DNA from: Bacteroidales bacterium
GTDB lineage: Bacteria; Bacteroidota; Bacteroidia; Bacteroidales; VadinHA17
Reading direction: 5' to 3'
NCBI GenBank assembly: GCA_041686075.1
Contig: JAWLEO010000017.1
Span: forward strand, 12,256-76,255
Length of the DNA: 64,000 bases
The notes beneath the pieces were generated by a model. It was not told where the DNA came from and searched no databases. It saw only the letters and a program-made list of their open reading frames with translations. Below, one piece after another: positions 7,495-54,249 of this stretch (positions are counted from its first letter, which is position 1; each line of letters opens with the position of its first letter). The position numbers and the translations under genes were made by a program.

Positions 7495-7658
7495 GGCTAT
7501 ATATTTGGTTGAACATCTATACCACGGATATAATCAGGCAGGTGATAAATGTTAATCATACACTTTACCCCTTATGCTAATTTATGACAAAAAAAGGACT
7601 TATAAAAAGTTTTTCGATGTTTCGGGTTTGCCATCGGCGAGCCCCGCTACGCTCCCCT

Positions 7659-9449: not shown

Positions 9450-9539
9450 ATGTTAATAATCTTTAAGTGTTGAATCGTTTAATTGTTTAACCGGGGGTAT
9501 ATCATAAGTACACATTTTTATCATCCTGAGCGATGAGAA

Positions 9540-9557
9540 GCCTGCCTTCCGGCAGGC
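9540..9557 (-). terminator. GC-rich hairpin (gcctgcc-ttcc-ggcaggc) between the two aconitase-family paralogs; weak terminator or REP-like element
   Basis: Perfect 7-bp stem with a tetraloop, read directly. It lies 46 nt downstream of the stop of the 9603..11414 gene on the minus strand. The T-tract is poor. Confidence 0.3.
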
Positions 9558-9602
9558 GGGTTGAATCTGATTCGTTAATCTTCAATCTAATATCATAAAG
9601 GC

Positions 9603-34881: not shown

Positions 34882-36198
34882 TTATGGATTCCCCTGTCTT
34901 TTATTTTTTTCAACAAGGTATTTAAAGGGGTATATGAATCTTTCAATCAACCTCATATCTTCGGTTATTATTTCAGCCCTGCCTGACATATTCTGGGTGA
35001 AATCAAGTTTTTTACCATAAAATGTTGATAAGCCCTCAGGTAGATTAACATCCAGCACATATGAATTATCCTGTGGCACCAGTGATCGTGTTTCCACTTT
35101 TCCCTGCACCATTCCATATTCCAGGTAAGGATATCCTTCAAGCTGGATATTTACATCCTGTCCTTCTTTCACCTTACCCGAGCCTGCCATAGGGATCATG
35201 ATGCGGGCAATTATTTCATTTTCACCTTCCGGCACAACGGTCATCACTGTTTCTCCCTCTTTTACAGTTTGATTTTCTGACCAGTACCTTGTAAAAGTCA
35301 CATTACCGTCAATAGGTGCAAGCAAAAGGTAATTTTGTATCCACCACTCCATTCTTGCCTTGAGTTTCATAAGCTCATCATCAAGATTTGAGAGTAATTT
35401 TTGTCTTTCTTCTTCGCGTGCGGCAGTCAGATCCTGTAATTCTTGTTTTTTAGATGCCAGATCAATGCGCCTTGAAGCAGCTTCCAGGACAACCTGTACA
35501 AGTTCAATTTTAAGGGAATAAAATTTCTGTTTCGAATTTTCGAGTTGAGCATCAGGTAATATGTCCTGAGTATGGAGAAGTGAGTCCCTTAGATATTTTC
35601 TCCTTTCCACTTCAAGGTTAGACCCTGTAAGGGCTTCTTTACTTTTTAACTGCCTTATATAATCTTCAATGCTTTTTATCTCCTCCTTTACAGCCCCGAT
35701 TTTTTTTCCGTAGTAATCAATCTCAATATGATTCTTATAGTTATAATAGCTTTTACGAAAAGCCGAATATTGATCCTGTATCTCTCCAAGAACAGAATTA
35801 TCGGGCAGTTGACGGTTAATAGCCTTATATCTTGATGATATATCCTCTGTTTTTATGGAGTCGAGCATTGAACTCAACCACTGTATGCTTTCATATGAAG
35901 CGGTGGTCTCCATTACTCCCAGGATGGATCCTGCAGTCACCTGTTCACCATCGCTCACAAAAAGGTGTTCAATTTTACCGGAAATCCTTGCCACAATATT
36001 TGCAGGTGGTTTTTCTGTTGTTATTACAGCTTCGGCCCTGATTATATATGGATATTTTATAAGCCATGAAAATATCAAAAGTAATATGATTACTGTGGCA
36101 ACTATAGCTGTACCCCATCTAATAAGAGACCCGGGCGGTTTATTCATTATATCTTCCACGGGTCTTGAGTACCTTATTTCATGTAATTGTCTTTTCAT
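34882..36198 (-). CDS. HlyD-family membrane-fusion (periplasmic adaptor) protein of a peptide exporter
   Basis: Single N-terminal TM (WGTAIVATVIILLLIFSW), a long coiled-coil centre and a beta-barrel C-terminus. I chose the ATG at 36198 (the track start at 36207 is TTG). It lies 5 nt downstream of the ABC gene stop. Confidence 0.7.
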   Translation of the reverse strand: MKRQLHEIRYSRPVEDIMNKPPGSLIRWGTAIVATVIILLLIFSWLIKYPYIIRAEAVITTEKPPANIVARISGKIEHLFVSDGEQVTAGSILGVMETTASYESIQWLSSMLDSIKTEDISSRYKAINRQLPDNSVLGEIQDQYSAFRKSYYNYKNHIEIDYYGKKIGAVKEEIKSIEDYIRQLKSKEALTGSNLEVERRKYLRDSLLHTQDILPDAQLENSKQKFYSLKIELVQVVLEAASRRIDLASKKQELQDLTAAREEERQKLLSNLDDELMKLKARMEWWIQNYLLLAPIDGNVTFTRYWSENQTVKEGETVMTVVPEGENEIIARIMIPMAGSGKVKEGQDVNIQLEGYPYLEYGMVQGKVETRSLVPQDNSYVLDVNLPEGLSTFYGKKLDFTQNMSGRAEIITEDMRLIERFIYPFKYLVEKNKRQGNP

Positions 36199-36203
36199 AT
36201 ACT

Positions 36204-38390
36204 TCAACTACCAAGTTCCAGCTGTTCACGTACCAGATTATAATATACACCTTTTTTATCTATCAGCTCATTATGAGTCCCGCTTTCTATCATACGGCCT
36301 TTATCAATAACCATGATATTATCGGCATTACGCACCGTACTAAGCCTGTGTGCAATTACCAGCACTGTCTTGCCCGAGAAAAACTCATCGAGGTTTTCAA
36401 CTATCTGCTTTTCATTAACGGCATCCAGTGAATTTGTAGCTTCGTCAAAAAACAGGTATTCAGGATTCTTGTACACTGCCCTCGCTATTAATATCCGTTG
36501 TTTTTGTCCCTGACTCAATCCATGACCATTATGCCCTATTCTTGTATTTATCCCCAGGGGCAGCGTCTCCACAAATTCACTTATATTAGCTATTGAGATG
36601 GCTTTGTTTAATTTCTCCCTGTCGATTATATCCACACCGGGACTAATATTATTGGCTATACTATCAGGAAAAATATAACCATCCTGCATTACCACCCCCA
36701 CCCTGCTCCTCCATAATTTGAGGCTTAAGTTTTTGAGGCGGGTGTCACCAACCATTATATCACCTTCAACAGGCTTATAGAATCCGAGTATTAGTTTTAA
36801 TAAGGTAGTTTTGCCGCTACCGCTGGTGCCGACCAATGCAGTAACCTTACGTTCAGGTATCACTATATCAATATCCTTCAGTACATAGGGTGAACGTGGT
36901 CCTTCATATTGGAATGAAAGGCTATTCACATATATACTTTTGTTTGCCGGCAGGCTTTTCACTTTCATTTCCTCTTCTGATTCTTCAGGTTGACTGGAGT
37001 GTACCTCCGAGATCCTGTCCAGGCTCATCCTGGCGTCCTGGGCTGTCCGGAAAAAGACGACCATCTGGTTTACAGGGATATTTAACTGGCCTATAATAAA
37101 TTGCACGGCAAGCATCATGCCGAGAGTCATACTCCCTGATAATACGGCAGTGGCAGCAATAATTGTAATAATAATATTTGAGGCCTCATTAATAAATTTC
37201 CCCCCGGCAAGCTGGTATTGGGAAAGACTCATCGCCTTAACCCTTGTCTTGAAGAGTGAAGCCTGGATATTCTCCCAGTCCCATCTCTTACTTGTTTCGC
37301 TCTGTGTAAGCTTTATTTCCTGTATACCGGTGATTATATCAATCAGCCTGGCATTGTTATCAGACAATTGCTTAAACCTTCTATGATCAAGCTGGGCACG
37401 CGACCGCATGAAAAAGGACACCCAGGCAATGTAAGCAGTTGTACCCGCAATGAAGACAAGCAATATGGTGATATTGTAAATTGCCAGCACGATGCCAAAA
37501 ACCACCAGATTAACAAAGGAAAACAGTACACTTAATGACGTATTACTGAGAAATGATTCGATGCGTTGATTATCTTCTATCCTCTGCAAGAGGTCGCCAC
37601 TTAATTTAGTATCGAAATACGACAACGGCAATGTCATCAATTTATATAGGAAACCTGATATTATAGCCACATTAACCCTTGTGCTTATATGCAATAAAAG
37701 CCAACCGCGTACAAACTCAACTGTCATCCTGCCTATAACCAGGGCAAGTTGTGCGAACAGTATAAGGTAAATAAATCCAAGGTCATTGTTATTTATTCCT
37801 ATATCTATAATCGATTGTGTAAGAAAGGGGAAAATCAATTGTATGAGACTCCCTATAAACAGGCCCAGAAAGATCTGGAAAAAATACTTTCTGTACATAT
37901 TTACATACCGGAAAAGAAAACCAAATCCCGATTTTCTTTTTTTTGTTTCTTCCTGATCATAAAATTCAGGGCTTGGTTGAAGTATCAATACCAGCCCCAC
38001 CTTCTCCTCGTCGATCTTTGTCGTAGCCCAGTTTTTCTCAAATTCATCCCTTGAATATTTTATCAGGCCTTTTGCGGGATCGGCAACATAAACTGTGTTT
38101 TTCTTTATCTTATACACTACGACAAAATGCTTTTGCCTCCAGTGCACAATACAGGGTAAGGGAGTTTCTTCAACCAATTTATTGAAGGGTATGCGCACAC
38201 CTATAGTCCTGAATCCTATCGCCTCCGCCGCCTCGGATATACCCAGGAAAGACACTCCTTCCCGGCTTATGTAGCTCTTTTCCCTCAAATCAGTGAGGCT
38301 GAACTTTTTACCATAAAAGCGTGCAACCATCTGTAGACAGGATGGACCACAATCCATTGCATCTGCTTGCCTTTCGAAAGGGAACGACAT
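36204..38390 (-). CDS. Peptidase-C39-domain ABC transporter (double-glycine leader cleaving peptide exporter)
   Basis: N-terminal RQADAMDCGPSCLQMV (catalytic Cys context) and KHFVVVYKI...VYVADPA (His/Asp context). Six-TM domain. Walker A GTSGSGKTT, signature LSQGQKQR, Walker B LFFDEATN. I chose the ATG at 38390 (track start is TTG at 38396). Confidence 0.85.
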   Translation of the reverse strand: MSFPFERQADAMDCGPSCLQMVARFYGKKFSLTDLREKSYISREGVSFLGISEAAEAIGFRTIGVRIPFNKLVEETPLPCIVHWRQKHFVVVYKIKKNTVYVADPAKGLIKYSRDEFEKNWATTKIDEEKVGLVLILQPSPEFYDQEETKKRKSGFGFLFRYVNMYRKYFFQIFLGLFIGSLIQLIFPFLTQSIIDIGINNNDLGFIYLILFAQLALVIGRMTVEFVRGWLLLHISTRVNVAIISGFLYKLMTLPLSYFDTKLSGDLLQRIEDNQRIESFLSNTSLSVLFSFVNLVVFGIVLAIYNITILLVFIAGTTAYIAWVSFFMRSRAQLDHRRFKQLSDNNARLIDIITGIQEIKLTQSETSKRWDWENIQASLFKTRVKAMSLSQYQLAGGKFINEASNIIITIIAATAVLSGSMTLGMMLAVQFIIGQLNIPVNQMVVFFRTAQDARMSLDRISEVHSSQPEESEEEMKVKSLPANKSIYVNSLSFQYEGPRSPYVLKDIDIVIPERKVTALVGTSGSGKTTLLKLILGFYKPVEGDIMVGDTRLKNLSLKLWRSRVGVVMQDGYIFPDSIANNISPGVDIIDREKLNKAISIANISEFVETLPLGINTRIGHNGHGLSQGQKQRILIARAVYKNPEYLFFDEATNSLDAVNEKQIVENLDEFFSGKTVLVIAHRLSTVRNADNIMVIDKGRMIESGTHNELIDKKGVYYNLVREQLELGS

Positions 38391-38529
38391 AGCCAATAAT
38401 AGTTAAGCCTGTAAATATATCTATTATTTGATTCTATTCAAACATAGTGCTCTTACAGCTTATTATTGATATTAAATCATTGAGTTAATCCTTTGGAAAT
38501 AGTATATTTGCCTCAAATATTACTATTAA

Positions 38530-39096
38530 GTGTTAAAAAAACACTCTGATAAGAAATTAATAGAGGGAATACGAAAAGGGGACGACAAATCTGTTAATTA
38601 CCTCTATGAATCATTTTTCGATACCATAAAATCTCATGTACTGAAAAATACAGGAACGGAAGATGATGCATATGATATATTCCAGGATGCCCTGATGGTA
38701 CTTTTCAAAAAGGTACAGCTCAATCACCTTGATGAAAATACTGATATCAGAGCTTATGTCTTTGGTGTTTCCAGAAACTTATGGTATGAGCATCTCCGAA
38801 GGAAGAGGAAAAGTGTAGAAATGAATGAGGAATTGGTTGACGACTGTGATCCCTCGAAATTGCTTGATACACCCCTGGAACAAATTGTGCAGCGTTCTTT
38901 TCTTAAACTCAAGACTGAATGCCAAAAAGTCCTCAATATGGCAATTAAGGGATATGAATACAGTGAGATAGCACGTAAAATGAAATACAAATCAGAAGAA
39001 TATGCGCGTCGAAAAAAGTATCTGTGTAAGGAAGCACTTATTAAAATAGTAAAAGCCGACCCTGAATACAGTGACTATACAGACCTGGATTTGTAA
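38530..39096 (+). CDS. ECF-like sigma-70 family RNA polymerase sigma factor
   Basis: Region 2 (DAYDIFQDALMVLFKK...YVFGVSRNLWYEHLRRKRK) and region 4 HTH (YEYSEIARKMKYKSEEYARRKKYLCKEAL). GTG start. A TATATTTG -7 box lies at 38503-38510. Confidence 0.75.
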   Translation: MLKKHSDKKLIEGIRKGDDKSVNYLYESFFDTIKSHVLKNTGTEDDAYDIFQDALMVLFKKVQLNHLDENTDIRAYVFGVSRNLWYEHLRRKRKSVEMNEELVDDCDPSKLLDTPLEQIVQRSFLKLKTECQKVLNMAIKGYEYSEIARKMKYKSEEYARRKKYLCKEALIKIVKADPEYSDYTDLDL

Positions 39097-42080
39097 TAAT
39101 ACCAGCCAGCAAAAAAGAGGATGACAACAAGCATTGCCATTAGCAAATACCTTTTAACAGGAAAATAGACCGGGGCGTCATTGCCCATTATCACCAGGGT
39201 GCTCCAGAAATATGGGTGTGACCTCATCTGATCTGCATCTTCCAGGTAGTCCATTCTTGCTTTACGCAACGATTCACTTTTTGTGAGTCCTTTCTTAAGA
39301 TTATAATAAAAATCCTTAACTATATCGCTCCCGGAGCGGTCATCCACCTCCCACAAAGACATTATCACACAAGGACTTCCGGAATAGAAAAATCCCCTGG
39401 CCAGGCTCATAACGCCCTCACCGGCCTGTAGATAACCGGTACCGGTATTACAGGAACTGAGAAAAACCATTTTAGCTTTAATAGGTATGTTGTAAACCTC
39501 ATAGGTATTAAGCATTCCATCTTCAAGGGTATCGTTTTCCATGTTGAAGAACATCTTAGAGTACATAGGTTCATTATCGTTCAACCGTGTGTGCATGGCA
39601 AGGTGGATCAGGTCTCCTTCGAGTACCTTTGATTTAAAAACGCTTTCAGTGGCCTTATCATCAATATACAGTTTCCCTCCAAGCAGTTTATTTATATATA
39701 TTGCTTCCTCCCTTGCTCCAGGTATATTGGCCAGGCTGTCACGGTAATATTGCCTACTTTCCATAAGTTCTTCAATATCTAAACTCCCGCTATAGTCCGG
39801 GGCGAAAGTCAGCACATTGTTAGATGCACTGCGGCGGGACGATAATGCTTCAGACAGTAATGTACCGGAGTATTCATATATTATCTCGAAATCCTTGATG
39901 AGATAAGTCAAATGACGGTAATTTACTTCCTTATACCCGGGCATTTCGCTTATCAGTGTTTCAAAGGGTATATAAGAAAGCAGATCATCTGCAGATATTA
40001 TTAACCTATCGGAGTTCAAGTAATCCCGGACAGGGAGTAACAGCTTTTTATACAGATTGAAAGCCAGCTCAACATACTCCCTGTACTGTTCGCCTGCACC
40101 ACTTACTATTGCCGGCCCGGTCAGAATATCTCTGAAAGTAAGGATCATTTCCCTGAATTCATCACCCACGGGCACCGATTTAATCTTAAAACAGTCTTTG
40201 TTTATAAGAAATATATATAAAATACTGTCAGACAGGTAGTATTCAATGAAGTTGCTATTGCTGGTAATACTGTTTCGTATATCATCTACAGTGCTTACCG
40301 ATGTATTATATTTCAAGTTATAATACCTTGGGTACTCCTTTTCAAAAACACCTACAAGGGAATCATATTTTGCAGATGCCAGCGCGCTCAAAATATGGTA
40401 ACGGTCAATAAGTTCCCTATCCGGTTTTATTTTTGCTGATTCATTGTATATAACCTCGTTGTAGTCTCTTATATCACCAATCAGTGCCCTTTCAATTGCG
40501 GCTAGATCGGGCGGGAGGTGGAAATTCATTGCCCTGATATTCCTTGTTGCAGTTAGGAGGCCGGCAGCTTTTGACTTTTCTGAAATTGCAAAAGCCCGGT
40601 CAAGGTACTTTTCTTCACCGGTAAGATTGAACAGCTCATTTAATATGGACAATGTCATATCATAAGCATTGATATACCGTCCTGACAACATGCTCCTGCT
40701 ATCGTCCTGCTGTATCCTGAGCCTGGTGCTTTCAATATTTTCTATAGCTTGCTCAGCTGCGTTTAAAGCACCTTTGAGATTCTGTATGTCATGTCCCACC
40801 CTGTATGTTTGATATAATATCCTGCTTTTGTGCATGAATGATGCCGTCCTGATCTTTGATGACAGCACCAGGGAATCATTAATTATATCATTGATATATC
40901 TTAAAGCTTCTGCATATCTGCCGGTATTATACATCAATCGTGATAAATACAGGGTGGCCTCACTTTTAACTTTGTTATCCTGCGGATTACCGGACATATA
41001 TGATTTAATAATGCCTGACATATCCCCTGCCCTATCATAATCCTTTCTGTAATACATCAGAAAGTCACAAAAAGTCAGTAACTGCACAATGTAATCTCTA
41101 CTCCCTTCTCCATATTCATTTTCAGCTTCTTCGACTGCTAATAATAAATAATCTTCTGCCTTATCCAGCATTTCTATTTCAGCCAGTAAATAGGCATAAT
41201 TCTCATATACCGAATTAAGAGTCCTTCCCCTGAATCCTTTTGAATCAATTAATTTCAACGCTTCCCGGAAAAAATAATCTGCCCGGTCCAGGTTTTCAAG
41301 CTCATAATTACACACAGCCAATGAATTATATAAGAGTAAAAGCTTGGTGGGATCGAGGCCTACGCTTTCCCCGGCAAGGGAATATGCAATTTCAAAGTTT
41401 CTATTTGCCCTGTTATAATCAAGGTTATTGATATATGACACTCCGGAATTATAATATAGATCAGCCAGCATCCCTCTCGCAATTTCATCTGGCTCCCTTT
41501 CCACAATCTGTATACCCCTGAGTGATGTTGATAAGGCACGTTCATACATGTTTAAATCAATATACAAAGCCGAAAGATTGAGTAAGGTTCTTAAGAGAAA
41601 GGGTGAAGCCATTCCAAAAAGTTTTTCCCTGGTGGAAAGAGCTATTTCGAGATTTACACGAGCCTCCTCAGGCCTGCCTGTATACATGTACGAAAGAGCC
41701 AAATTGCTTCGAGCCCTTGCATAAATATCATCAATACTATCTGAAGCAATCCTGTATCTTATAGACTGGACCAGCATTTCAATTGCCTCATTGTATGAAT
41801 TCTTTAAATAATTATATGTTCCGGCATAGTAATAACAATCCGATATAAGAATGCTATCGTTGACGAGGCCAGAGTCAAGGCAGGTGCGTATCCATTCATA
41901 ATATTCCCCTGCTTCCGGACTGCTTTTCAGCATTGCTGATTTGAAATTATCGAGTTTTATTATTATTAGGGTATCTCGCCTGGCTCCATGATAAATATTA
42001 CTGGCTGTTGATTTTATGCCCGAATTGAAACAAAAGACAGCACTAATCAGTATGACAGTATATCTGAATAAATCTTTCAT
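39075..42080 (-). CDS. TPR-repeat CHAT-domain (caspase-like) protein with N-terminal signal/anchor and C-terminal TM helix
   Basis: Long array of TPR-like repeats. The C-terminal CHAT core has LIHLAMHT (His) and VFLSSCNTGTG (Cys) and ends HPYFWSTLVIMGN. The C-terminal TM is YLLMAMLVVILFFAGWYYY. The N-terminus is MKDLFRYTVILISAVFCF. Confidence 0.8.
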   Translation of the reverse strand: MKDLFRYTVILISAVFCFNSGIKSTASNIYHGARRDTLIIIKLDNFKSAMLKSSPEAGEYYEWIRTCLDSGLVNDSILISDCYYYAGTYNYLKNSYNEAIEMLVQSIRYRIASDSIDDIYARARSNLALSYMYTGRPEEARVNLEIALSTREKLFGMASPFLLRTLLNLSALYIDLNMYERALSTSLRGIQIVEREPDEIARGMLADLYYNSGVSYINNLDYNRANRNFEIAYSLAGESVGLDPTKLLLLYNSLAVCNYELENLDRADYFFREALKLIDSKGFRGRTLNSVYENYAYLLAEIEMLDKAEDYLLLAVEEAENEYGEGSRDYIVQLLTFCDFLMYYRKDYDRAGDMSGIIKSYMSGNPQDNKVKSEATLYLSRLMYNTGRYAEALRYINDIINDSLVLSSKIRTASFMHKSRILYQTYRVGHDIQNLKGALNAAEQAIENIESTRLRIQQDDSRSMLSGRYINAYDMTLSILNELFNLTGEEKYLDRAFAISEKSKAAGLLTATRNIRAMNFHLPPDLAAIERALIGDIRDYNEVIYNESAKIKPDRELIDRYHILSALASAKYDSLVGVFEKEYPRYYNLKYNTSVSTVDDIRNSITSNSNFIEYYLSDSILYIFLINKDCFKIKSVPVGDEFREMILTFRDILTGPAIVSGAGEQYREYVELAFNLYKKLLLPVRDYLNSDRLIISADDLLSYIPFETLISEMPGYKEVNYRHLTYLIKDFEIIYEYSGTLLSEALSSRRSASNNVLTFAPDYSGSLDIEELMESRQYYRDSLANIPGAREEAIYINKLLGGKLYIDDKATESVFKSKVLEGDLIHLAMHTRLNDNEPMYSKMFFNMENDTLEDGMLNTYEVYNIPIKAKMVFLSSCNTGTGYLQAGEGVMSLARGFFYSGSPCVIMSLWEVDDRSGSDIVKDFYYNLKKGLTKSESLRKARMDYLEDADQMRSHPYFWSTLVIMGNDAPVYFPVKRYLLMAMLVVILFFAGWYYYKSRSV

Positions 42081-42304
42081 ATAAAAAGTTATATGCTAAA
42101 AGCTATCAAATATCAAAATAAGAACTCAAAAAGCCAAAAAAATACCTCAATCTATTTAACTGTATATCTGCCTTTTACGAACCATCTCAAAAAAATGTTC
42201 ACTTTTTTATGTCACAAAACGGTTAAATACGACATGTATATATGTAACGTAATTAGATAACCCGATTAATTTAAAAAAGTGTAACCAACAAAAAATTTAG
42301 AAAA

Positions 42305-42445
42305 ATGAAAACACTGAATCAGGAAAATTTTGAGAATTTCAAAGACTTTTTACTTTCAGACGAAGAAATGATTCTTGTTCGAGGTGGTGACGATGATGGC
42401 GACAGAGGAATGACAGTACCTCCTATCACAGAACCTGAAATCTAA
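42305..42445 (+). CDS. Double-glycine-leader precursor peptide (46 aa; predicted 18-aa acidic mature peptide)
   Basis: Not in the ORF track (below its size cutoff). My translation is MKTLNQENFENFKDFLLSDEEMILVRGG|DDDGDRGMTVPPITEPEI*. Positions -12 to -1 (LSDEEMILVRGG) fit the LSxxELxxIxGG leader consensus. A C39 ABC exporter lies 3.9 kb away. Confidence 0.65.
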   Translation: MKTLNQENFENFKDFLLSDEEMILVRGGDDDGDRGMTVPPITEPEI

Positions 42446-42671
42446 ACACAGGATCAAAGCCAGCTTATTAAAGGAAATACGGCGATCTGTAAAATATTGT
42501 AACCGCAACATTTCGGTTAGAGCTAAATAAAGCATAGCCGGAAAGGTAAGGATATGGCATAAATATAAGGTGCCACAGTTACAGGGTGCATTGCATCCGG
42601 ATGGTAACGGCAGGATGTGAAAATATATATTTATCTGTCCACATTATGCTTATAATGTGATGGTTAAGATG

Positions 42672-42727: not shown

Positions 42728-43465
42728 ATGAAAAAAATTGAGTTCACCCGCTTTATCGAGAGATATCTCGAGGGCAAGATGCAAAGCTCCGAAAAAAAGT
42801 GGTTCGAGGCGGAGCTTGAGGGCAATCCAGGTTTAAAGAAAGAACTGGAATTGCGCAGGAATGTAGACAAATATGTTGACAACCAGGATGCTATAGCATT
42901 CCGACAAAGCCTGATGAATGCTGAAGCCAGGCACAGAAAAGCTGCTGCCAGAAAAAGGGCTGCCACAAAGCAGATAATCCAGTACGCGGCTATATTTGCG
43001 GGCTTGATATTAATCGGCGCCGTCGGCTTTTATATTTTCAGGAATGACAACAATGGTGACATTGCAAGTACTTTTAAACCTGAGTATACTCCGCTTGCAT
43101 CATACCGTTCATCATCCGCAGAGCTGGATAAGGCATATACCAGGGCAACAGAATACTATAATTCAGGCAATTATACTGAAGCTATCAAGTGGTTTAATAT
43201 GATAGTGAACCCGGACATGCAGGTTGAATTCCTTAAAGGCTCATCCCATATGCAAATCAGTCAGTATATCGAAGCCATAGGGTCATTCACCAAGGTTGTT
43301 AAAGATAATGATAACCTCTTTATTGAAGATGCCAGGTTTTACCTGGGTGTTTGTTATATCCAAACAGGTCAGGAAAATAAGGCAAGAGAGTTGCTGGAGG
43401 ATATAATCAACTCTGAAAGCAGGCACAAGAAAGAAGCAAGAAAACTTCTAAGAAAAATCAACTAA
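42728..43465 (+). CDS. Single-pass membrane protein with periplasmic TPR domain (anti-sigma-factor-like)
   Basis: The cytoplasmic N-terminus FIERYLEGKMQSSEKKWFEAELEGNPGLKKELELRRNV is the pattern seen in Bacteroidota anti-sigma-like proteins. TM helix IIQYAAIFAGLILIGAVGFYIF. C-terminal TPRs (YNSGNYTEAIKWF, FYLGVCYIQTGQENKARELL). Confidence 0.55.
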   Translation: MKKIEFTRFIERYLEGKMQSSEKKWFEAELEGNPGLKKELELRRNVDKYVDNQDAIAFRQSLMNAEARHRKAAARKRAATKQIIQYAAIFAGLILIGAVGFYIFRNDNNGDIASTFKPEYTPLASYRSSSAELDKAYTRATEYYNSGNYTEAIKWFNMIVNPDMQVEFLKGSSHMQISQYIEAIGSFTKVVKDNDNLFIEDARFYLGVCYIQTGQENKARELLEDIINSESRHKKEARKLLRKIN

Positions 43466-43491: not shown

Positions 43492-44319
43492 ATGTTTATG
43501 ACTTTTGGAAATAATATGGAGAAAGAAAGAAGACATAGTGAGAATGATAAGTCAGAAAATATAAATCCTGTACATAATACCGATATGCTGAATACTCCTT
43601 CCATATTAACCGGCTTATCTCACGAAGTGCGAACTTACATGAACTCAATAGTAGCATTTACCTTCCTGAGCAATAATGATAACTGTACGGCAGAACAAAG
43701 GAATGAGTATAATAAGCATATCATGAATTCATGCGACCAGCTAATTACATTATTTGATAATTTTCTTGATTCAGCTTTAATTGATTCCGATGAACCCAGG
43801 ACAACCATCACCAGATGCGAGCTTCGGTCTTTCATGAAAGACCTTCTGAGTGATTTAAAAAATTCAATCAGCAGGTTCGACAAGAAAAAGGTTACACTGC
43901 TGCTGGATGAACGATCCGGGAATGATTCCATGTTCATTGACAGGGAGAAGATTAATCGGGTTTTGAGAAATCTCTTTTTCAATGCGCTGGAAAATACGGA
44001 ATCAGGATATATTAAAATGGGTTACAGGAAGCAAAAAAGCAAGGTTGAATTTTACGTTATTGATTCAGGCAATGCTTACACTAAGAACCGGGAACTGCTT
44101 ACCTGTGAAGACCTAACTAAATACATTGGTGAACACCAGAACACATTTACCACTGTGTCATTCTTATTTTCACAAAAACTCATTGAAAGCATGAACGGTG
44201 AATTATGGATACGGCCAAATGGTGTGGACGGGACTGCTATGTATTTCTCGGTCCCTGACCACACTAATGCTATAAAAAAGAATAAGTCTGAAAGTATTTC
44301 ATCGAGAATCGCAATCTGA
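43492..44319 (+). CDS. Soluble, sensor-less histidine kinase (HisKA + HATPase_c only)
   Basis: H-box LSHEVRTYMNSI, N-box RNLFFNALENT, G-box-like VIDSGNAY. No TM or sensor domain. No response regulator in the window. Confidence 0.6.
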   Translation: MFMTFGNNMEKERRHSENDKSENINPVHNTDMLNTPSILTGLSHEVRTYMNSIVAFTFLSNNDNCTAEQRNEYNKHIMNSCDQLITLFDNFLDSALIDSDEPRTTITRCELRSFMKDLLSDLKNSISRFDKKKVTLLLDERSGNDSMFIDREKINRVLRNLFFNALENTESGYIKMGYRKQKSKVEFYVIDSGNAYTKNRELLTCEDLTKYIGEHQNTFTTVSFLFSQKLIESMNGELWIRPNGVDGTAMYFSVPDHTNAIKKNKSESISSRIAI

Positions 44320-44408: not shown

Positions 44409-46391
44409 TTATTTTGATATTTTCAGTATGCGTATATCGGTGCGCCTGTTTTTTCTTCTTCCTTCTTCATTGGTATTGTCATAGAGTGGAACTGCTTCAC
44501 CATAGCCTTTATAATGAAGGCGATCAGGAGATATACCGCGTTTTACGAGATAATTTTTCACAGCCAGCGCACGTTTCTCGGAGAGGACAAGGTTATGTTC
44601 ATCAGATCCTGTTGAATCAGTGTGTCCTCCTATCTCAACTACCAGGTCTTCATTGCTTGCAAGCAAATCAAAAAGTTTTTCCAGCTCGGGTAAGGATTGA
44701 TCACGCAGCTCCCATGAATCAAGGGCAAAAAATACATTATGCAGAGACATCTGTTGTCCAACCTGTATAGGGCTGAGGGAGATAGTTTTTTCAAATGGTT
44801 CAATTGAACTGTGTTCACCTTCCAGCATAAAATTCTCTGAATAGAAAAGGTAGTCTTTGCTGCTAACATTTATTCCGTAATTCTGACCTGTGGGTAAGCA
44901 TACCAGGAAATTACCTCCTGAATCGGAAAATGACTGAATCACTCGTTTACCTGTACTGAGGTTTATCAGTTCATACGTAGCTTTTAATGGCCTGCCCGTA
45001 ACTTTATCTATAACACTTCCTTTCAGGTAAGACACCGGGTCAGGCCTGAGAGATTCAGGCATTTCAAAATAGAACAGGTCCCTACCCTTCATTGTATTTA
45101 TTTTTGATGAGAAATAAGCAACTTCTCCCGAGGAATTGATTATAAGTCCTATTTCATCTGTCTGTGTGTTTATTGGATAGCCAAGGTTTTCAGGTTCTGA
45201 CCATGTACTGTCTTCTTTGTTAAATCTCGACATAAAAATATCAAAACCTCCCATACAGGGTCGACCATTAGATGAAAAATACAATGTTTTACCATCAAAG
45301 TGAATGAAAGGAGACATCTCATCACCCGGTGTATTGATCACCTCACCCAGGTTCACCGGCTCCGACCACCGGCCGTCTTTAACCTGGTTACTCACCCAGA
45401 TATCCATCCCCCCATAGCCACCAGGGCGGTTACTTACAAAGAAAAGTTTTGAGCCATCAGATGAAAGAGATGGTTGTGATTCCCAGTTAGCTGTATTTAT
45501 CGGTCCACCAATATTTATACCCTTCTTCCATCCCTTATCTGTCCTTGCTGAATAGTATATATCACAACTGCCTTTACCATCCTCCCTGTTGCATGCTGTA
45601 TAATACATATAATTACCAGCCGGTTCGAGTGTCTGAGCACCTTCATTATATGATGTATTCAACGGTGGCCCTGCATTTCTGGCAACAGTCCATTCACCGT
45701 CAATCCTGTAACTGTAATAAAAATCCTCCTGGTACTTCTTACCCATCAGGCTACTGCTTCGTATCGTATTTTGCCTGGTAAAGAGCAACATATTATCGTC
45801 TGCAGTTATCGCCGGCCAATATTCATCATCACCGGTATTAATTGATTCCCCAAGATTAACAGGATTAAAATCAACAGGACTCTTAATTGCTTCCAGCGCA
45901 AAATCACAATCCCTGATGTACTTTCTTGCTTTTTGTGCATTAATGGATTTTTGACCTGTCAGATCCAGGTATAATGAGAAACTGCTTCGTGCTCCCGAAT
46001 AATTACCGCTAAGGAATTGCACCTCCCCATATCCGAACCAGGCCGGGATAAAGAAGGTGGAATCAATAGTTAATGCCTGGCGGTAGGCATTGGCTGACTG
46101 GCGGTATTTAAGCATATCCTTTGATAGCTCAGCAAGCAACAGGTGGGCTTCAATGAATCCAGGGTCTTTCTCAACTGCATCAAGAAGATGTCGCTCAGCT
46201 TCTTTATAATTAATAAAATCGTAAGCTTGCTTACCATCGTTATATGCCTTCAGGGCTTTATTTGATTTTGTATGAAGCTCCTGCGACAACAGACAGTATG
46301 GCTGACCAATAATAATAAGCAGCAACAAAACCCTAATAAGAGTATTTAAGGTATACCCATGTATTTGTGACTTTGAATTGATATTGACCAT
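44409..46391 (-). CDS. OmpA-family protein with TPR, TolB-like beta-propeller repeats and C-terminal OmpA peptidoglycan-binding domain
   Basis: The C-terminus IGGHTDSTGSDEHNLVLSEKRALAVKNYL is the OmpA_C motif. Repeated W..P.NLG..IN motifs indicate WD40-like/TolB repeats. N-terminal TPRs. Confidence 0.8.
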   Translation of the reverse strand: MVNINSKSQIHGYTLNTLIRVLLLLIIIGQPYCLLSQELHTKSNKALKAYNDGKQAYDFINYKEAERHLLDAVEKDPGFIEAHLLLAELSKDMLKYRQSANAYRQALTIDSTFFIPAWFGYGEVQFLSGNYSGARSSFSLYLDLTGQKSINAQKARKYIRDCDFALEAIKSPVDFNPVNLGESINTGDDEYWPAITADDNMLLFTRQNTIRSSSLMGKKYQEDFYYSYRIDGEWTVARNAGPPLNTSYNEGAQTLEPAGNYMYYTACNREDGKGSCDIYYSARTDKGWKKGINIGGPINTANWESQPSLSSDGSKLFFVSNRPGGYGGMDIWVSNQVKDGRWSEPVNLGEVINTPGDEMSPFIHFDGKTLYFSSNGRPCMGGFDIFMSRFNKEDSTWSEPENLGYPINTQTDEIGLIINSSGEVAYFSSKINTMKGRDLFYFEMPESLRPDPVSYLKGSVIDKVTGRPLKATYELINLSTGKRVIQSFSDSGGNFLVCLPTGQNYGINVSSKDYLFYSENFMLEGEHSSIEPFEKTISLSPIQVGQQMSLHNVFFALDSWELRDQSLPELEKLFDLLASNEDLVVEIGGHTDSTGSDEHNLVLSEKRALAVKNYLVKRGISPDRLHYKGYGEAVPLYDNTNEEGRRKNRRTDIRILKISK

Positions 46392-46969
46392 TCAGTATGG
46401 TTTTTAACGTATTCAACTATTAAGGGTATTATTTTCTTAAAATTGCTCCACTCTGGCTGCAGATAGAGTTTGCAAGCTAAAGGTACCCTGTTTTTGTATT
46501 TTTCAGCCCAGGCAAAATCATCTTCCTCTCTTATTATCACCTTCAATTCTCCTGCCAAAGTACAAATGTTTTTGTAAGGAGGTCGATTTTTTTTTGGAGA
46601 AAGGCAAATCCAATCCCAGCAACCAGTTAATTGATGAGAACCTGAAGTTTCAAGATAAGTTTTAATATTCGATTTTTTTAATTTTCTGCATAAGGGATCG
46701 AGGTTATACATCAAGGGCTCCCCGCCGGTTAAAACAACCGAATCAGCACCTGAATCATCAACAGCCCTCATCAGTGAATCAATATGGGTCATTTTATGAT
46801 ACCTGGGATCCCATGCAAATTTGGTGTCACACCAGCTACAACCAACATCACATCCACCCACACGTATAAAATATGCAGCCTTGCCTGTATGAAAGCCTTC
46901 ACCCTGTATTGAATAGAAATGTTCAACCACCGGAAGGTAAATTCCCTCTTTACCTCTTTCTTCCTTCAT
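46346..46969 (-). CDS. queE: 7-carboxy-7-deazaguanine synthase (radical SAM)
   Basis: FYSIQGEGFHTGKAAYFIRVGGCDVGCSWCDTKF and VVLTGGEPL parallel QueE over the full ~207-aa length. Confidence 0.8.
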   Translation of the reverse strand: MKEERGKEGIYLPVVEHFYSIQGEGFHTGKAAYFIRVGGCDVGCSWCDTKFAWDPRYHKMTHIDSLMRAVDDSGADSVVLTGGEPLMYNLDPLCRKLKKSNIKTYLETSGSHQLTGCWDWICLSPKKNRPPYKNICTLAGELKVIIREEDDFAWAEKYKNRVPLACKLYLQPEWSNFKKIIPLIVEYVKNHTEWSISIQSHKYMGIP

Positions 46970-50360: not shown

Positions 50361-51466
50361 TCTATCAATGGCCTTACAGCATCAAGTTCAATTTCAAACA
50401 TTAAATCATCCCTGCATACCGTGCCACCAACAGAAAGAAAATATGAAGGATCAATTTCCTTTGACAGACAGTAATCTGTTAAATGCTTTACATGACCGGG
50501 ATCAGGGAAGTAAGCAATAGCACGTACAATATCATCCCACTTGTAATGCTCACTTATCAAGATAGATTTTACAACTCCCATGGTATGCTCTATTTGTTTT
50601 ACAACGTTTTCCTTATATAGTGTTTCTCCGGTGCTGCCTATTGAAGCTGTTCCACTTATTACCAGTCTTTTTGATGTTTGAAAACTGATCTCCACAGCCC
50701 TGCTGAAGGAGCTCTTATAGTTGATGGCATCACATTGCATAGGGGAATCAACCATTCTAACCATTTCTTTTTCATCCTTCGGATTAATCGCAAAAGCACT
50801 GAGCGAAAGGTTCTTCTTATAAATATTGCTAAGGCCTATGCCGGTGCTGGAAGGAATAATTCCTTCAAAGATATTTTCTTCTGTGAAAAAATCATTCCGC
50901 CCTTTGTTTAAGATATCATACCAGTCGAGGATATTATTAATATAAAGCCAGGTACGGACCAGATTATTATAGCTGACATTGTTATCCTTAAGTATTTTCC
51001 CGAGTGATTCGAAGGATGAAAATGCCTCCATGTAATAATTATCCGACTTGCTTGCCCGGATATTACTTATATAATAAAGTTCCGAGCCATAATGATCAAA
51101 CACTTTAACAGTGGTATGTTCTGGTGCATTTAATGATTTAACCGCCCTGTCATTGGCACAAATCAATTGTATCTGGTAACCAGATGAAACATTATGGTGG
51201 AGGAAGATCATAGTGCCAAGCCTGTTGAAAGGAGCATTAATAATATTAGCACCAGGACCAGTACCAAAACCAAAAGCAAAACCAATTAGCACCTCCAGAT
51301 AATTGTCCTTTAGGTATGATGATAAATATTTGGTAGCCTTACAAATATTGCCATCGGGCTGCACATCTAGATTAATATAGAAAAACGAATGATCCGGATA
51401 TTCTTCTTCTACTATGATTAAATCTGATTTTTCGCAGATAGAAATTTTTTCCCTGTTAATGTTCAT
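50348..51466 (-). CDS. FkbO/Hyg5/XanB2-like chorismatase-family protein (RidA-fold C-terminus)
   Basis: RTWLYINNIL, IPSSTGIG, FSRAVEI and VISGTASIGSTGETLY match the family blocks R.WNYIP.I, PAATGIG, FSRA and ISGTASI. The ATG at 51466 overlaps the upstream gene's end by 11 nt. Confidence 0.5.
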   Translation of the reverse strand: MNINREKISICEKSDLIIVEEEYPDHSFFYINLDVQPDGNICKATKYLSSYLKDNYLEVLIGFAFGFGTGPGANIINAPFNRLGTMIFLHHNVSSGYQIQLICANDRAVKSLNAPEHTTVKVFDHYGSELYYISNIRASKSDNYYMEAFSSFESLGKILKDNNVSYNNLVRTWLYINNILDWYDILNKGRNDFFTEENIFEGIIPSSTGIGLSNIYKKNLSLSAFAINPKDEKEMVRMVDSPMQCDAINYKSSFSRAVEISFQTSKRLVISGTASIGSTGETLYKENVVKQIEHTMGVVKSILISEHYKWDDIVRAIAYFPDPGHVKHLTDYCLSKEIDPSYFLSVGGTVCRDDLMFEIELDAVRPLIDQDS

Positions 51467-53831
51467 TTTTTTCAAGCTGTTCTAACCTGCTTAGGATTGC
51501 CTGTTTCTGTTCATCTGCCAGATTCTCATTCTTGAGTGCTTTTTCGAGAATAATTTTTGCCCTATCCAGATTACCTTCATTGATGTAAATGCCTGACAGA
51601 AGAAAGTAAGAATCAAAGAAAGAACCATCCTCATCTATAATATCCTCAAGTATTTTCTTTGCAGAGGCCGTTTTGTCCGATCTAACAAGGTAAAAGGCAT
51701 GTGTATAGGTATATTTCATATTTCCGGGATCCCATTTCATTGCTCTCCGGCTAAGGTCAACGGCCTTCTCCAGGTCATCATCTGATACAAGTACTGCAAG
51801 GTTATAAGCAGCTACTGCATTTTCATCGCTAACAGCCATCAGTCGCTTAAAGTGTTGTTTGGCCATCTCGCTATTCCCTGTTTCACCATATAAGAGTGCC
51901 AGGTTTAGCAATGCCGCCTCATGGTTGGGAGCATAAGAAAGAACCCTGGTAAACAATTCCTCAGCCCTCTTATAATTACCCAGTATTGAATTAACATAAC
52001 CGGCATTAACCATTGGCATTATGGCTTCAGGATATATCTTTATCGATGTATTATATGCTTCCAGTGCCTTTTCAAAGTCATTCACATTGCTATAGTAATT
52101 CCCAAGATTATAATGTGCCGACCAGTCGTCAGGGTGAGTGACCAGTGAATTTTCATATTCAGCCAGTGCAGCCGATATAATTGAACTGTTTGATTCATCG
52201 ATGTAATTATCAGGATATGAACTTAGAGAAAATGCTGCATTCAGTCTCACAAGCCTGTAGTCGTCCTTAACGAGCTCCAAAAGACGCTCGAAGGCCTGTT
52301 TTGAATTATCGGCGTAAAGGCTGTGGGCAGCAGCACCTCTAACCAGTGGTGATTCATGATAAGTAAGCTTCAGCATCACATCCCATTTTGAAGGATCATC
52401 GCAGTTCTCCAGTAACCTGATGAATGAAGTTGTATAAACTTTATCAAACCTTTCTGATTCAAGACCTGTTAATATTGTATCAAGATCAGACCAGTCGCCT
52501 TCCCTGGCTTTCCGTATAAGATATCCATTCCGAATTGTCTCAGCCTGGTACTCACGCTTATGTGTATCCTGAATTACTTTTTCGGCCCATTCAGCTGTCA
52601 TATCATCATGGCAGATATTGCAGGCATTTGGTGAACCAAAAGCTATTGTGGCCGCGGGCATAGGAGGACGGAATGAATGATCACTTCTGTCCATTCGGGC
52701 AAAAGTTGTTTTGGGCATATGGCAAGCAATACACTTACTTCCCTCAGAATCAGGTTTATGAAATGTATGAGCACTAACATTATTTACTCTGTCTGAGTGA
52801 CATGGCATGCAGGCATCATTGGCGTTTTCCCCTCCAAAACGATACCTGCCGCTGGAGGTATGACAGCTTACGCAGTGCATACCACTGCTTTCAGCACATT
52901 TGTTCATTTCCCATGTGGTCATGGTATAGTTCTCACCCAGGTCCCGACCATCGGCATAAAAGTCAGGGTTTTCGAGTGTAATGAGATCAAAGTAATCGTA
53001 AAATGGTGCACCGGGCTTATATGACTCGGCAATAACCGTTGCCTTGGCATGGCATGAACCGCAGGCAGCATTATGTTGCTCCGGGGTAAATATACTTGTT
53101 TGTACCAGTTTAAGATCTTCAGGCATATTCCCCTCCCCCGCTTTAACACATTCTACTATGTGTTCATAACTTGGCCCGTGGCATGTTTCACAGTTAATTC
53201 CCGGTTCCCGCCACTTTGTATTATAGGTGTTATCCTCCAGGTCATAATTAGTTTCAAGCTGGCTTACATGACAATTATAGCATGTAGTATTAAAAGTATA
53301 GAGGTGATTCATCCAGTCAAGGGGAGCGTCTTCCATAGCCTCAAAATGTCTCACCCCGCTTTCCGGGTTATTATACCAGGTATCGGTATCACAGTCGTAA
53401 GCAAGAGGCAAAACCTGCAGTCGACCACGTGATAAAGGTGTTAGGAAATAATATATATATTTACCACCCATAGTATGAATGGCAGGATATTCATTAGTTT
53501 CACCCGACCTCTTCATTTCCTCAAAAACAAGGGTGTCATTCTTCAACAGAACCTTAAATTTATCAGTACCCACCTTTATTTCCTGGTTAAATGACCTGAT
53601 ATTCTCTTCAATAAAATCACCTGTAACAGGCTGCATTGCCAGGCCGTGATACGAGTCATGCCATAAATCATAAAACCTTTCGTGACATGGACGACAGCTT
53701 TCGCTACCCGAATATGCAGCGACTTCATTTTGCAGCCTGTCGGATTTTATACTGTGCAGAACGGCAATTGACACAACGCCTGTAACCATTACTATTAAAA
53801 TGAAAATAATAAGAATTAATCTGTTTTTCAT
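51456..53831 (-). CDS. Membrane-anchored octaheme c-type cytochrome fused to HEAT/TPR repeat domain
   Basis: Eight CxxCH motifs: CRPCH, CYNCH, CETCH, CGSCH, CVSCH, CMPCH, CIACH, CNICH. N-terminal TM helix LILIIFILIVMVTGVVSIAVL. C-terminal TPRs. I chose the ATG at 53831 (track start at 53873 is TTG). Confidence 0.75.
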   Translation of the reverse strand: MKNRLILIIFILIVMVTGVVSIAVLHSIKSDRLQNEVAAYSGSESCRPCHERFYDLWHDSYHGLAMQPVTGDFIEENIRSFNQEIKVGTDKFKVLLKNDTLVFEEMKRSGETNEYPAIHTMGGKYIYYFLTPLSRGRLQVLPLAYDCDTDTWYNNPESGVRHFEAMEDAPLDWMNHLYTFNTTCYNCHVSQLETNYDLEDNTYNTKWREPGINCETCHGPSYEHIVECVKAGEGNMPEDLKLVQTSIFTPEQHNAACGSCHAKATVIAESYKPGAPFYDYFDLITLENPDFYADGRDLGENYTMTTWEMNKCAESSGMHCVSCHTSSGRYRFGGENANDACMPCHSDRVNNVSAHTFHKPDSEGSKCIACHMPKTTFARMDRSDHSFRPPMPAATIAFGSPNACNICHDDMTAEWAEKVIQDTHKREYQAETIRNGYLIRKAREGDWSDLDTILTGLESERFDKVYTTSFIRLLENCDDPSKWDVMLKLTYHESPLVRGAAAHSLYADNSKQAFERLLELVKDDYRLVRLNAAFSLSSYPDNYIDESNSSIISAALAEYENSLVTHPDDWSAHYNLGNYYSNVNDFEKALEAYNTSIKIYPEAIMPMVNAGYVNSILGNYKRAEELFTRVLSYAPNHEAALLNLALLYGETGNSEMAKQHFKRLMAVSDENAVAAYNLAVLVSDDDLEKAVDLSRRAMKWDPGNMKYTYTHAFYLVRSDKTASAKKILEDIIDEDGSFFDSYFLLSGIYINEGNLDRAKIILEKALKNENLADEQKQAILSRLEQLEKNEH

Positions 53832-53865
53832 AGCACTTTTTATGATTACTGTAGTGCCAAATGGC

Positions 53866-54249
53866 TCATTCAAATAAGCTTTCGTCCCTTACCAGTAGCA
53901 GTATACTTGATTGCGATACAACCACATATTTTTCCTTATTGAATTCTATCTCCACAGCTGTGTTCTGCATATAAACAGCAAGGTCACCTTCCTTTGGTTG
54001 TAGTGGTACATATTGTGGCTCCTCACTTCTTTTCTTCCATGGCTCATCCACATCGGTAATGGAGGGGATAGGGTATCCAGGGCCCACCTTCAAGACGTAA
54101 CCTAGCTGTACCTTTTCATTCTCATGCACTCCGGGTGGGAGATATAGTCCTGATTTAGTTTTGGATTGTGGAGTTTTGGGTTTGATCAATATCCTGTCTC
54201 CGACAACTATTAGTTTATTCAGATCTTTTTCATCTAAAAGCACATTCAT
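53866..54249 (-). CDS. GroES/Cpn10-like family protein
   Basis: VVGDRILIKPK...TKSGLYLP...GYVLKVGPG follows the GroES beta-barrel pattern, with a longer C-terminus than GroES. Confidence 0.5.
   Translation of the reverse strand: MNVLLDEKDLNKLIVVGDRILIKPKTPQSKTKSGLYLPPGVHENEKVQLGYVLKVGPGYPIPSITDVDEPWKKRSEEPQYVPLQPKEGDLAVYMQNTAVEIEFNKEKYVVVSQSSILLLVRDESLFE

Follow-up and report, generated by a model that had tools for sequence, protein, structure and literature searches.

Signalling by peptide pheromones has been documented extensively in Gram-positive bacteria; in Gram-negative bacteria it is, to our knowledge, rare and poorly documented, and in Bacteroidota it is essentially undescribed. The Gram-positive ComC/ComAB-ComDE, BlpC/BlpAB-BlpRH and PlnA systems pair a short double-glycine (GG) precursor with a C39 ATP-binding cassette (ABC) exporter and an accessory protein, and they place the peptide gene under its own regulated promoter. 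GG signals are also found in Gram-negative producers of bacteroidetocins and class II microcins, in which a 15-amino-acid (aa) signal precedes a mature toxin, tens of residues long, that has disulfides or is hydrophobic in character, and the small gene, often missed or unnamed, lies near a peptidase-containing ABC transporter (PCAT) in variable accessory loci (PMC12219008). A third described system is DdvA of Myxococcus xanthus, the transmembrane anti-sigma factor of DdvS, which is a sigma factor of the extracytoplasmic function (ECF) type; the periplasmic tetratricopeptide repeat (TPR)-CHAT part of DdvA is the proposed site-1 protease, and its inducing signal is unknown (PMC11506125). Here we analyzed a 64,000-nucleotide (nt) stretch of DNA (the window; 40% G+C) from a Bacteroidales bacterium (assembly GCA_041686075.1, contig JAWLEO010000017.1), in which a 46-codon open reading frame (ORF) at positions 42305-42445 of the plus strand encodes a GG-leader peptide in a cassette with genes for a PCAT, an ECF-type sigma factor, an exported TPR-CHAT protease and a TPR membrane protein. 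We consider the product of this ORF to be best explained as an unmodified, linear, exported signalling peptide coupled to the sigma/anti-sigma/CHAT module, a reading to which we assign a probability of roughly 0.5. A search of the literature yielded no description of such a peptide/PCAT/sigma/TPR/CHAT cassette.

The ORF translates as MKTLNQENFENFKDFLLSDEEMILVRGGDDDGDRGMTVPPITEPEI, followed by a stop codon at 42443-42445. Its first 28 codons (42305-42388), MKTLNQENFENFKDFLLSDEEMILVRGG, constitute the leader with VRGG at its end, and the next 18 codons (42389-42442), DDDGDRGMTVPPITEPEI, constitute the core. Both the translation and the leader positions agree exactly with the original prediction, an earlier reading of this DNA made from its letters. 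A protein search returned 10 close relatives of 66-89% identity, and a profile built from them extended the family to 164 members. When a family hidden Markov model (HMM) was run exhaustively against 1.84 billion cluster representatives, it matched 125 clusters (50% identity) at an E value of 1e-3 or below, 41 of them at 1e-10 or below, and all matches were small (31-93 aa). The family is unnamed and lineage-restricted to Bacteroidales. For a sample independent of the peptide, 80 species loci were fetched via the neighbouring CHAT protein and then checked for an upstream family ORF. The family HMM found one, at the same position, in 64 of the 80 loci, and a leader search added a single divergent copy in locus L086. 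Of the 15 loci left, 12 stop at the CHAT gene, with no DNA upstream of it, and three (L085, L090 and L092), which encode the most distant CHAT proteins of the set, truly lack the ORF. Across the 64 species, the length of the ORF is held at 42-53 aa and the pN/pS ratio (nonsynonymous to synonymous) equals 0.43; the entropy over the last 18 leader codons amounts to 0.61, 0.57 and 1.23 at codon positions 1, 2 and 3, respectively, so that the third position is about twice as variable as the first two. Because its frame is conserved and its substitutions follow a coding pattern, as the original prediction had asked of it, the ORF is a genuine conserved gene. It had also been expected that gene callers would skip the ORF; NCBI, however, lists it as ACQERS_02460, a hypothetical protein, the identical sequence occurs in a metagenome-assembled genome (MAG) of a Bacteroidota bacterium, and metagenome pipelines call its homologues. 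The region 5′ of the ORF is A-rich and contains no Shine-Dalgarno sequence, which Bacteroidota genes usually lack.

All members of the family share the leader MKTLN..F.EF.LS.EEMI.VRGG. In the window peptide the leader ends with LLSDEEMILVRGG, which, counted backwards from the GG, places V at −4, M at −7, E at −8, S at −11 and L at −12, and these five positions are conserved throughout the family. The window peptide carries all the hallmarks of a double-glycine leader, namely hydrophobic residues at −4, −7 and −12, an acidic residue at −8, a length in the range of about 15-30 aa and an end of the GG/GA/GS type. The cores of the family comprise 12-25 aa, contain proline and consist of three parts: an acidic/Gly stretch of differing length right behind the GG, in many cases a basic residue, and a conserved C-terminal segment that contains proline and has Ile or Leu as its last residue. 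The composition of the window core was predicted correctly (4 D, 2 E, 1 R and 3 P, without C, K or any aromatic residue, for a net side-chain charge of −5). The acidity that had been regarded as its defining trait, however, belongs to one clade only, the minority clade of the window, whose cores end in ...[KR][GQ]xxxPP[IV]T[ED]PE[IL] and have a charge of −3 to −5, whereas most members form a larger clade ending in ...PxxPP[IV][KR][IV] with a core charge near 0. Neither did the family show the anticipated division into a conserved leader and a varying core, since the C-terminal MTVPPITEPEI is conserved to the same degree as the leader. Within the core, conservation is lowest in the DDDGD run, which also varies in length: other members have DGDGDGGKQ, DGEKQ or GPDNEKG in its place. 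This Asp/Gly run after the GG would be best explained as a variable spacer rather than as the active part.

The functions originally put forward for the core included a signal, which fits the genomic context best, and a Ca2+-binding peptide, which fared poorly. In the latter case, a secreted peptide would chelate cations through its DDDGD run; the window core indeed has five acidic residues in its first five-plus positions, and several other family members contain long Asp/Glu/Gly runs. Nevertheless, the run varies in both sequence and length even in close relatives, many members retain no more of it than GE or lack it altogether, and acidic spacing of the DxDxDG type is not conserved across the homologues. 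Moreover, the extracytoplasmic proteins of the acidic-core clade are generally acid-shifted, and because the shift is confined to extracytoplasmic proteins, part of the acidity is a lineage trait, although the shift of the core itself, about −19 per 100 aa, is far above that of these proteins. The reading of the variable DDDGD run as a Ca2+ motif was rejected, and we regard a Ca2+-binding role of the peptide as highly improbable.

The exporter that would process the peptide is encoded 3.9 kb away in the same conserved cassette. The PCAT gene (36204-38396, minus strand) encodes a C39 peptidase (Pfam C39, E value of 2.5e-38), a transmembrane domain (ABC_membrane, 4.9e-29) and an ATPase (ABC_tran, 2.3e-29), and the conserved N-terminus MSFPFERQ of the protein implies an ATG start at 38390. 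Over its full length the protein matches PCAT1 (4ry2; E value of 1.2e-103, residues 8-723) and ComA (8hf7; 3.1e-89). Residues Q8, C14, H88 and D104 are invariant in 56 of 56 loci; hence the catalytic Cys/His pair is intact and the C39 domain is not degenerate. The link to a C39 ABC protein drawn by the original prediction was therefore borne out by a full-length PCAT with invariant catalytic residues. An adjoining gene (34882-36207, minus strand) encodes an HlyD-family membrane-fusion adaptor (Pfam HlyD_3, 5.9e-11; TIGR01843, 3.6e-31) with an N-terminal transmembrane segment at residues 25-58. Wherever the peptide gene is present and the locus holds enough sequence to judge, the HlyD and ABC genes are present as well, and the family HMM detected no further GG-leader ORF in the window. 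We consider it very likely that the peptide is a real substrate of this PCAT. Cleavage after Gly28 and export of the unmodified 18-mer have good support from the leader and the exporter, and we infer that they take place.

The GG leader is of the Bacteroidota type and weakly matches, over the leader, the HMM of TIGR04149 (GG_sam_targ_CFB), which brings in the alternative that the peptide is a precursor of a RiPP (a peptide synthesized ribosomally and modified post-translationally) whose core is modified before export by a radical S-adenosylmethionine (rSAM) or other enzyme encoded elsewhere. The leader resembles TIGR04149 with an E value of 0.038, one family member, P0016, has been named "rSAM-modified peptide" by NCBI, and Bacteroidales RiPP clusters often combine GG leaders with genes for PCATs, membrane-fusion proteins, TPR proteins, histidine kinases and response regulators (PMC10352776). 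However, the window peptide scores 13.9 bits against a TIGR04149 cutoff of 25 and aligns with model positions 1-30 only; among 50 members, four reach an E value below 1e-3, and their matches are likewise limited to leader positions 1-29 of 43. The core is unrelated to that of TIGR04149, lacks Cys and offers few modifiable residues, which are at non-conserved positions. Furthermore, no RiPP maturase, whether of the rSAM/SPASM or another type, was found in the window or, in eight loci, among the called genes of the flanks up to about 10 kb from the peptide gene, where the one rSAM protein is QueE-like and 207 aa long. Membership in the TIGR04149/rSAM RiPP group was rejected on account of the subthreshold score, the leader-only match and the missing maturase, and an rSAM- or otherwise modified core appears very unlikely to us.

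Two observations concern the annotation of rSAM-related genes. The name of P0016 rests on a TIGR04149 score of 25.7 bits (cutoff of 25) over leader positions 1-29 of 43, and its locus, L011, has no rSAM maturase; the label is probably an over-annotation made from the leader. In the window, the sole protein with a CxxxCxxC motif is a QueE-like radical-SAM enzyme of 207 aa (46346-46969, minus strand) without a SPASM domain. It was rejected as a maturase, being QueE-like and part of the conserved housekeeping flank. The enzyme scores below every QueE equivalog cutoff (115.6 versus 200 bits for the best one) and is syntenic in 55 loci.

The association of a GG leader with a PCAT and a membrane-fusion protein in a Gram-negative producer corresponds to the architecture of class II microcins and bacteroidetocins (PMC12219008), and bacteriocin peptide genes are commonly under dedicated regulated promoters. 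The peptide could accordingly be a short, unmodified antibacterial relative of these toxins, with the sigma factor, CHAT protease and kinase merely regulating its production. Mature class II bacteriocin-type peptides comprise tens of residues and are cationic, hydrophobic or Cys-paired; by contrast, the mature part here is an acidic or Pro-rich 12-25-mer behind a 28-aa leader, it has a charge of −3 to −5 in the clade of the window, and it contains neither Cys pairs nor an amphipathic or hydrophobic stretch or helix. No bacteriocin family matched above threshold. Between the peptide gene and its neighbours there is no conserved ORF that could serve as an immunity gene, and the 282-nt spacer downstream of the peptide gene is poorly conserved (53-76% identity), being the least conserved segment. 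Finally, because the peptide gene is single-copy and keeps a fixed chromosomal position among housekeeping genes in at least 64 species, it is not an accessory gene of the kind found in strain-variable bacteriocin loci and accessory islands. An antibacterial function thus seems quite unlikely, and we put the chance of a signalling role, as opposed to one as a toxin or a RiPP, at about even.

The gene of the signalling peptide would be controlled by a promoter of its own. A promoter-like motif, TGTCACAAA-N13-ACATGTA, follows a T-tract at 42210-42238 (plus strand), about 67 nt upstream of the ATG, and its two blocks are spaced like −35 and −10 elements; transcription is predicted to start near 42245. 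In aligned upstream regions, TGTCACAAA-N12-14-ACATGTA is kept ahead of the peptide ORF in all 64 species. The motif occurs once in the window, where 0.02 matches are expected, and once per locus in 71 loci; no other target was found in 1.6 Mb of related loci. A metagenome scan listed at least 120 matches, and among the matches listed 20 precede a family peptide and 101 do not. Since none of these 101 listed matches has the extended context of the motif, we take them to be chance occurrences. The −7 box of the housekeeping sigmaA of Bacteroidetes (consensus TAnnTTTG) is missing from the region ahead of the peptide gene in 58 of 63 loci and present upstream of the sigma factor gene in 64 of 70 (in the window as TATATTTG at 38503-38510). 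These patterns suggest that the peptide gene serves as the dedicated target of an alternative sigma factor, for which the ECF sigma factor encoded alongside would be the simplest candidate, and that the sensing parts may be expressed constitutively.

The sensing parts comprise the sigma factor, the TPR-CHAT protease, the TPR membrane protein and, in most loci, a kinase. The ECF-type sigma factor (188 aa; 38530-39096, plus strand) matches Sigma70_r2 (E value of 1.3e-07) and Sigma70_ECF (1.8e-05), and TIGR02937 at the cutoff. The exported TPR-CHAT (caspase-like) protease (1,001 aa; 39075-42080, minus strand) is encoded divergently from the peptide gene and contains a TPR_12 match and a CHAT domain (1.1e-51 over positions 3-289 of 289), in which H826, H830 and C877 are invariant and the His/Cys dyad is intact. 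Because the protein begins with a hydrophobic N-terminus (signal peptide) and ends with a hydrophobic anchor (residues 970-998), its bulk should be periplasmic. Searching the PDB with the CHAT profile gave no CHAT-domain match at an E value of 0.01 or below; all 55 matches fell in the TPR region, and neither DdvA nor craspase was among them. The third component is a single-pass membrane TPR protein of 245 aa (42728-43465, plus strand). According to topology prediction and an AlphaFold2 model (predicted TM score of 0.26), it would consist of a cytoplasmic helical N-terminal domain, a transmembrane segment (residues 83-105), a disordered linker (106-130) and seven periplasmic TPR helices. Within the linker, R127 and S128 are conserved in 98% and 93%, respectively, of the proteins from 60 species and in sigma-adjacent paralogues, while the surrounding residues vary, and R127-S128 represents a candidate site-1 protease cleavage site. 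We regard the protein as a putative anti-sigma factor and/or peptide receptor; 9 of 25 TPR-protein homologues weakly match the anti-sigma family NF052375 (best E value of 8e-4). The kinase, a soluble histidine kinase (Pfam HisKA and HATPase_c; 43492-44319, plus strand) encoded 26 nt downstream of the TPR gene, has neither a transmembrane segment nor a sensor domain, and its gene is present in 58 of the 80 loci.

Like the DdvS/DdvA pair (PMC11506125), this module combines an ECF sigma factor with an anti-sigma-like protein that spans the membrane once, has a small helical domain in the cytoplasm and carries a flexible juxtamembrane linker; both also have a periplasmic TPR-CHAT region with a His-Cys dyad. 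Unlike in DdvA, however, the TPR-CHAT region forms a polypeptide of its own, equipped with a signal peptide, and the anti-sigma-like protein has no more than a small TPR domain. A Zn-binding CHCC motif was not observed, there is no defence island nearby, and the cassette includes an exported GG peptide and its PCAT. By analogy, the cassette would work like DdvA, but with CHAT on a separate protein it is not a member of the DdvA family.

Such a module might, speculatively, recognise the peptide through its TPR domains. TPR domains read short linear peptides that are often Pro-containing or hydrophobic and have a conserved extreme C-terminus, and the profile of the periplasmic TPR region matches the TPRs of PEX5 and Hop among many others. 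The short peptide with its conserved C-terminus and the candidate TPR receptors are reminiscent of TPR peptide receptors such as the RRNPP quorum-sensing regulators and the carboxylate-clamp proteins Hop and PEX5. RRNPP receptors are cytoplasmic transcription factors or phosphatases that require re-import of the peptide, whereas both TPR candidates here are predicted to be periplasmic.

In the window, the genes are ordered HlyD (minus), C39 ABC (minus), ECF sigma factor (plus), TPR-CHAT (minus), peptide (plus), TPR protein (plus) and kinase (plus). Most loci share a wide synteny in which the cassette stands between pyrG and a DUF349 gene on one side and OmpA and queE genes on the other. Where this synteny breaks, the genes for the ECF sigma factor, TPR-CHAT and the TPR membrane protein remain together. 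In the three outgroup loci without the peptide ORF (L085, L090 and L092), the operon after CHAT couples the sigma gene translationally to a gene for a TPR-protein homologue (27% identity, E value of 7e-28), the stop of the former overlapping with the start of the latter, and no ABC, HlyD or peptide gene lies within 10 kb of CHAT. L086 and L093 have different surrounding genes, and a single operon encodes the peptide, the TPR protein, a HisKA protein, two LytTR proteins, the C39 ABC protein and HlyD; in L086 it maps to 6977-9583 and its peptide core, EGDNDDDLWPPTTIPPGND, is acidic too. There, CHAT is divergent and adjoined by an operon in which a second TPR paralogue is coupled to the sigma gene. 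These rearranged loci imply that the sigma factor, the TPR protein and CHAT form one unit, with the TPR protein in the classical position of an anti-sigma factor, and that the peptide, ABC and HlyD genes are gained or lost together and can be co-transcribed with kinase and LytTR genes. The LytTR-only proteins of L086/L093 have 128 and 111 aa and lack a receiver domain, and the kinase is HisKA-only.

LytTR domains are typical of peptide quorum-sensing regulators. The cassette shares with the ComC, Blp and PlnA systems a short GG precursor, a C39 ABC exporter with an accessory protein and a peptide gene with its own regulated promoter, and in L086 one operon holds the peptide gene together with those for a HisKA kinase and LytTR proteins. 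It differs from them in that the host is a Gram-negative member of Bacteroidales, the leader has 28 aa, the kinase is soluble without a polytopic sensor, no LytTR regulator is encoded in the window, and the ECF sigma factor, the TPR anti-sigma-like protein and the exported TPR-CHAT protease are integral parts. It is not a three-component system of the ComCDE type.

If the peptide is a signal, the following sequence of events can be proposed. The C39 domain of the nearby PCAT would recognise the 28-aa leader and cut after Gly28, and the PCAT and HlyD would carry the 18-aa DDDGDRGMTVPPITEPEI out of the cytoplasm. Its Pro-containing C-terminal part, with a free Ile/Leu carboxy-terminus, might then, speculatively, be bound by a periplasmic TPR domain, which could be that of the 245-aa anti-sigma-like protein or that of the TPR-CHAT protease. 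CHAT would next cleave the anti-sigma-like protein in its disordered juxtamembrane linker, with R127-S128 as the candidate site, a step that is likewise speculative. This would set the ECF sigma factor free, and the adjacent soluble histidine kinase may be engaged as well. The sigma factor would fire the TGTCACAAA-N13-ACATGTA promoter of the peptide gene, possibly with read-through into the TPR and kinase genes, and the outcome would be an autoinducing loop. We hold this complete, ligand-gated version, in which TPR-CHAT acts as a site-1 protease that senses the peptide, cuts at Arg-Ser and frees the ECF sigma factor, to be doubtful, and it is no more than tentatively that we propose such a combination of parts not previously seen together, in a Gram-negative lineage.

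Several points weigh against a signalling peptide wired to this module. Every step beyond the GG leader and the nearby PCAT has been deduced from sequence. Given the wide synteny, the co-occurrence of the genes is in part inheritance, and independent contrasts come only from L086/L093 and the three outgroups. The cassette encodes no outer-membrane exit duct. The assignment of the promoter motif to the ECF sigma factor draws on two points only, the spacing of its blocks and the absence of a sigmaA box. The TPR protein of the window gave E values of 0.11-0.15 against curated anti-sigma families, which are not significant, and the window encodes no response regulator or LytTR protein as a partner for the kinase. 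The peptide tail did not prove complementary in charge to the periplasmic TPR or CHAT regions; the result went in the other direction, as both regions are also more acidic in the acidic-core clade. Lastly, mirror-tree (partial) correlations between the divergence of the core and that of the TPR and CHAT regions were not above those for a control gene.

The proximity of the peptide gene to CHAT also allows for a different relationship, in which the peptide would stay inside the envelope of its producer, without diffusing, as a substrate, bait or securin-like pseudo-substrate inhibitor of the divergently encoded TPR-CHAT protease. The two genes are divergent neighbours in every locus, and both products are predicted to be extracytoplasmic. 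The acidic-core clade has a conserved [KR][GQ] pair, 9-11 residues before the C-terminus, which might serve for caspase-like cleavage, and TPR-CHAT proteases are subject to control by partners that bind them, as in the separase-securin case cited in PMC11506125. On the other hand, the larger PPIKI clade does not keep the [KR]G position, the peptide shows no sequence similarity to the R127-S128 linker site, and the outgroups possess CHAT, the sigma factor and the TPR protein without any peptide. Such a role, which overlaps mechanistically with that of a signal acting on the module, is in our view unlikely.

Should the exported signalling peptide operate through the full loop, it would constitute the first ligand class for CHAT-linked ECF signalling, a question left open for DdvA, as well as a novel kind of quorum sensing by peptides in Bacteroidota. 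The cassette, which is conserved in dozens of uncultured Bacteroidales species, unites a peptide, its exporter, an ECF sigma factor, an anti-sigma-like TPR protein, a CHAT protease and a dedicated promoter, and the peptides make up a family without a name, with about 125 clusters when grouped at 50% identity. If the product is only a small secreted peptide without a known role, the result is a modest one, adding one more GG-leader family.

Additional conserved elements accompany the genes of the cassette. Downstream of the stop codon of the peptide gene, 42474-42519 (plus strand) contains the block GAAATACGGCGATCTGTAAAATATT followed by a small hairpin, TAACCG...CGGTTA (42500-42519). The block is conserved in the close clade and the hairpin of the window is weak (z of −0.76); in the larger clade, a strong 12-bp hairpin stands directly 3′ of the stop codon (z of −2.7 in L036). 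The block and hairpin could form the 3′ end or an attenuator of the peptide transcript. Between the start of CHAT and the peptide promoter (42081-42160), the block CAAATATCAA[AT]ATAAGA...AAAAGCCAAAAAAA is invariant; on the CHAT strand it reads ...TTGATATTTG, which resembles the housekeeping −7 box, and it is probably the CHAT promoter. The 5′-untranslated region (UTR) of the peptide gene is unstructured in the window. In the larger clade (L029-L087) the 5′-UTR contains an inverted repeat, not found in the window, of AGTATTGA ... TCAATACT around a conserved AATTACCCTGAATTAGTA, with some compensatory changes (L077 and L072). This 7-bp helix is 67% paired, a value exceeded by only 3-4 of 500 shuffles, and RNAalifold predicts no consensus structure. 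A search of Rfam gave no family match, and PADLOC matched no defence system. At the other end of the CHAT gene, the sigma factor (plus strand) and TPR-CHAT (minus strand) genes are convergent, with their 3′ ends overlapping by 22 nt at 39075-39096, and the same arrangement occurs in L001, L003, L006 and L011; the overlap may cause transcriptional interference or antisense coupling.

Housekeeping genes make up the remainder of the window, including those for YidC, PyrG, a DUF349 protein, the QueE-like rSAM enzyme, alkaline phosphatase, GroES and PyrBI, among others. In an 805-aa protein (51456-53873, minus strand), motifs of multihaem cytochrome c occur alongside HEAT repeats and many TPR repeats, and the protein is conserved downstream in related loci. 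As for the charge of neighbouring proteins in the acidic-core clade, HlyD (34882-36207), CHAT (39075-42080) and OmpA (44409-46391) exceed their sister-clade counterparts in acidity by 1.7-2.8 charges per 100 aa, and the cytoplasmic QueE (46346-46969), sigma factor (38530-39096) and ABC proteins show no acid shift. The shift hints at a salt-exposed lineage, and hypersaline or hydrothermal sites are the origin of some of the MAGs.

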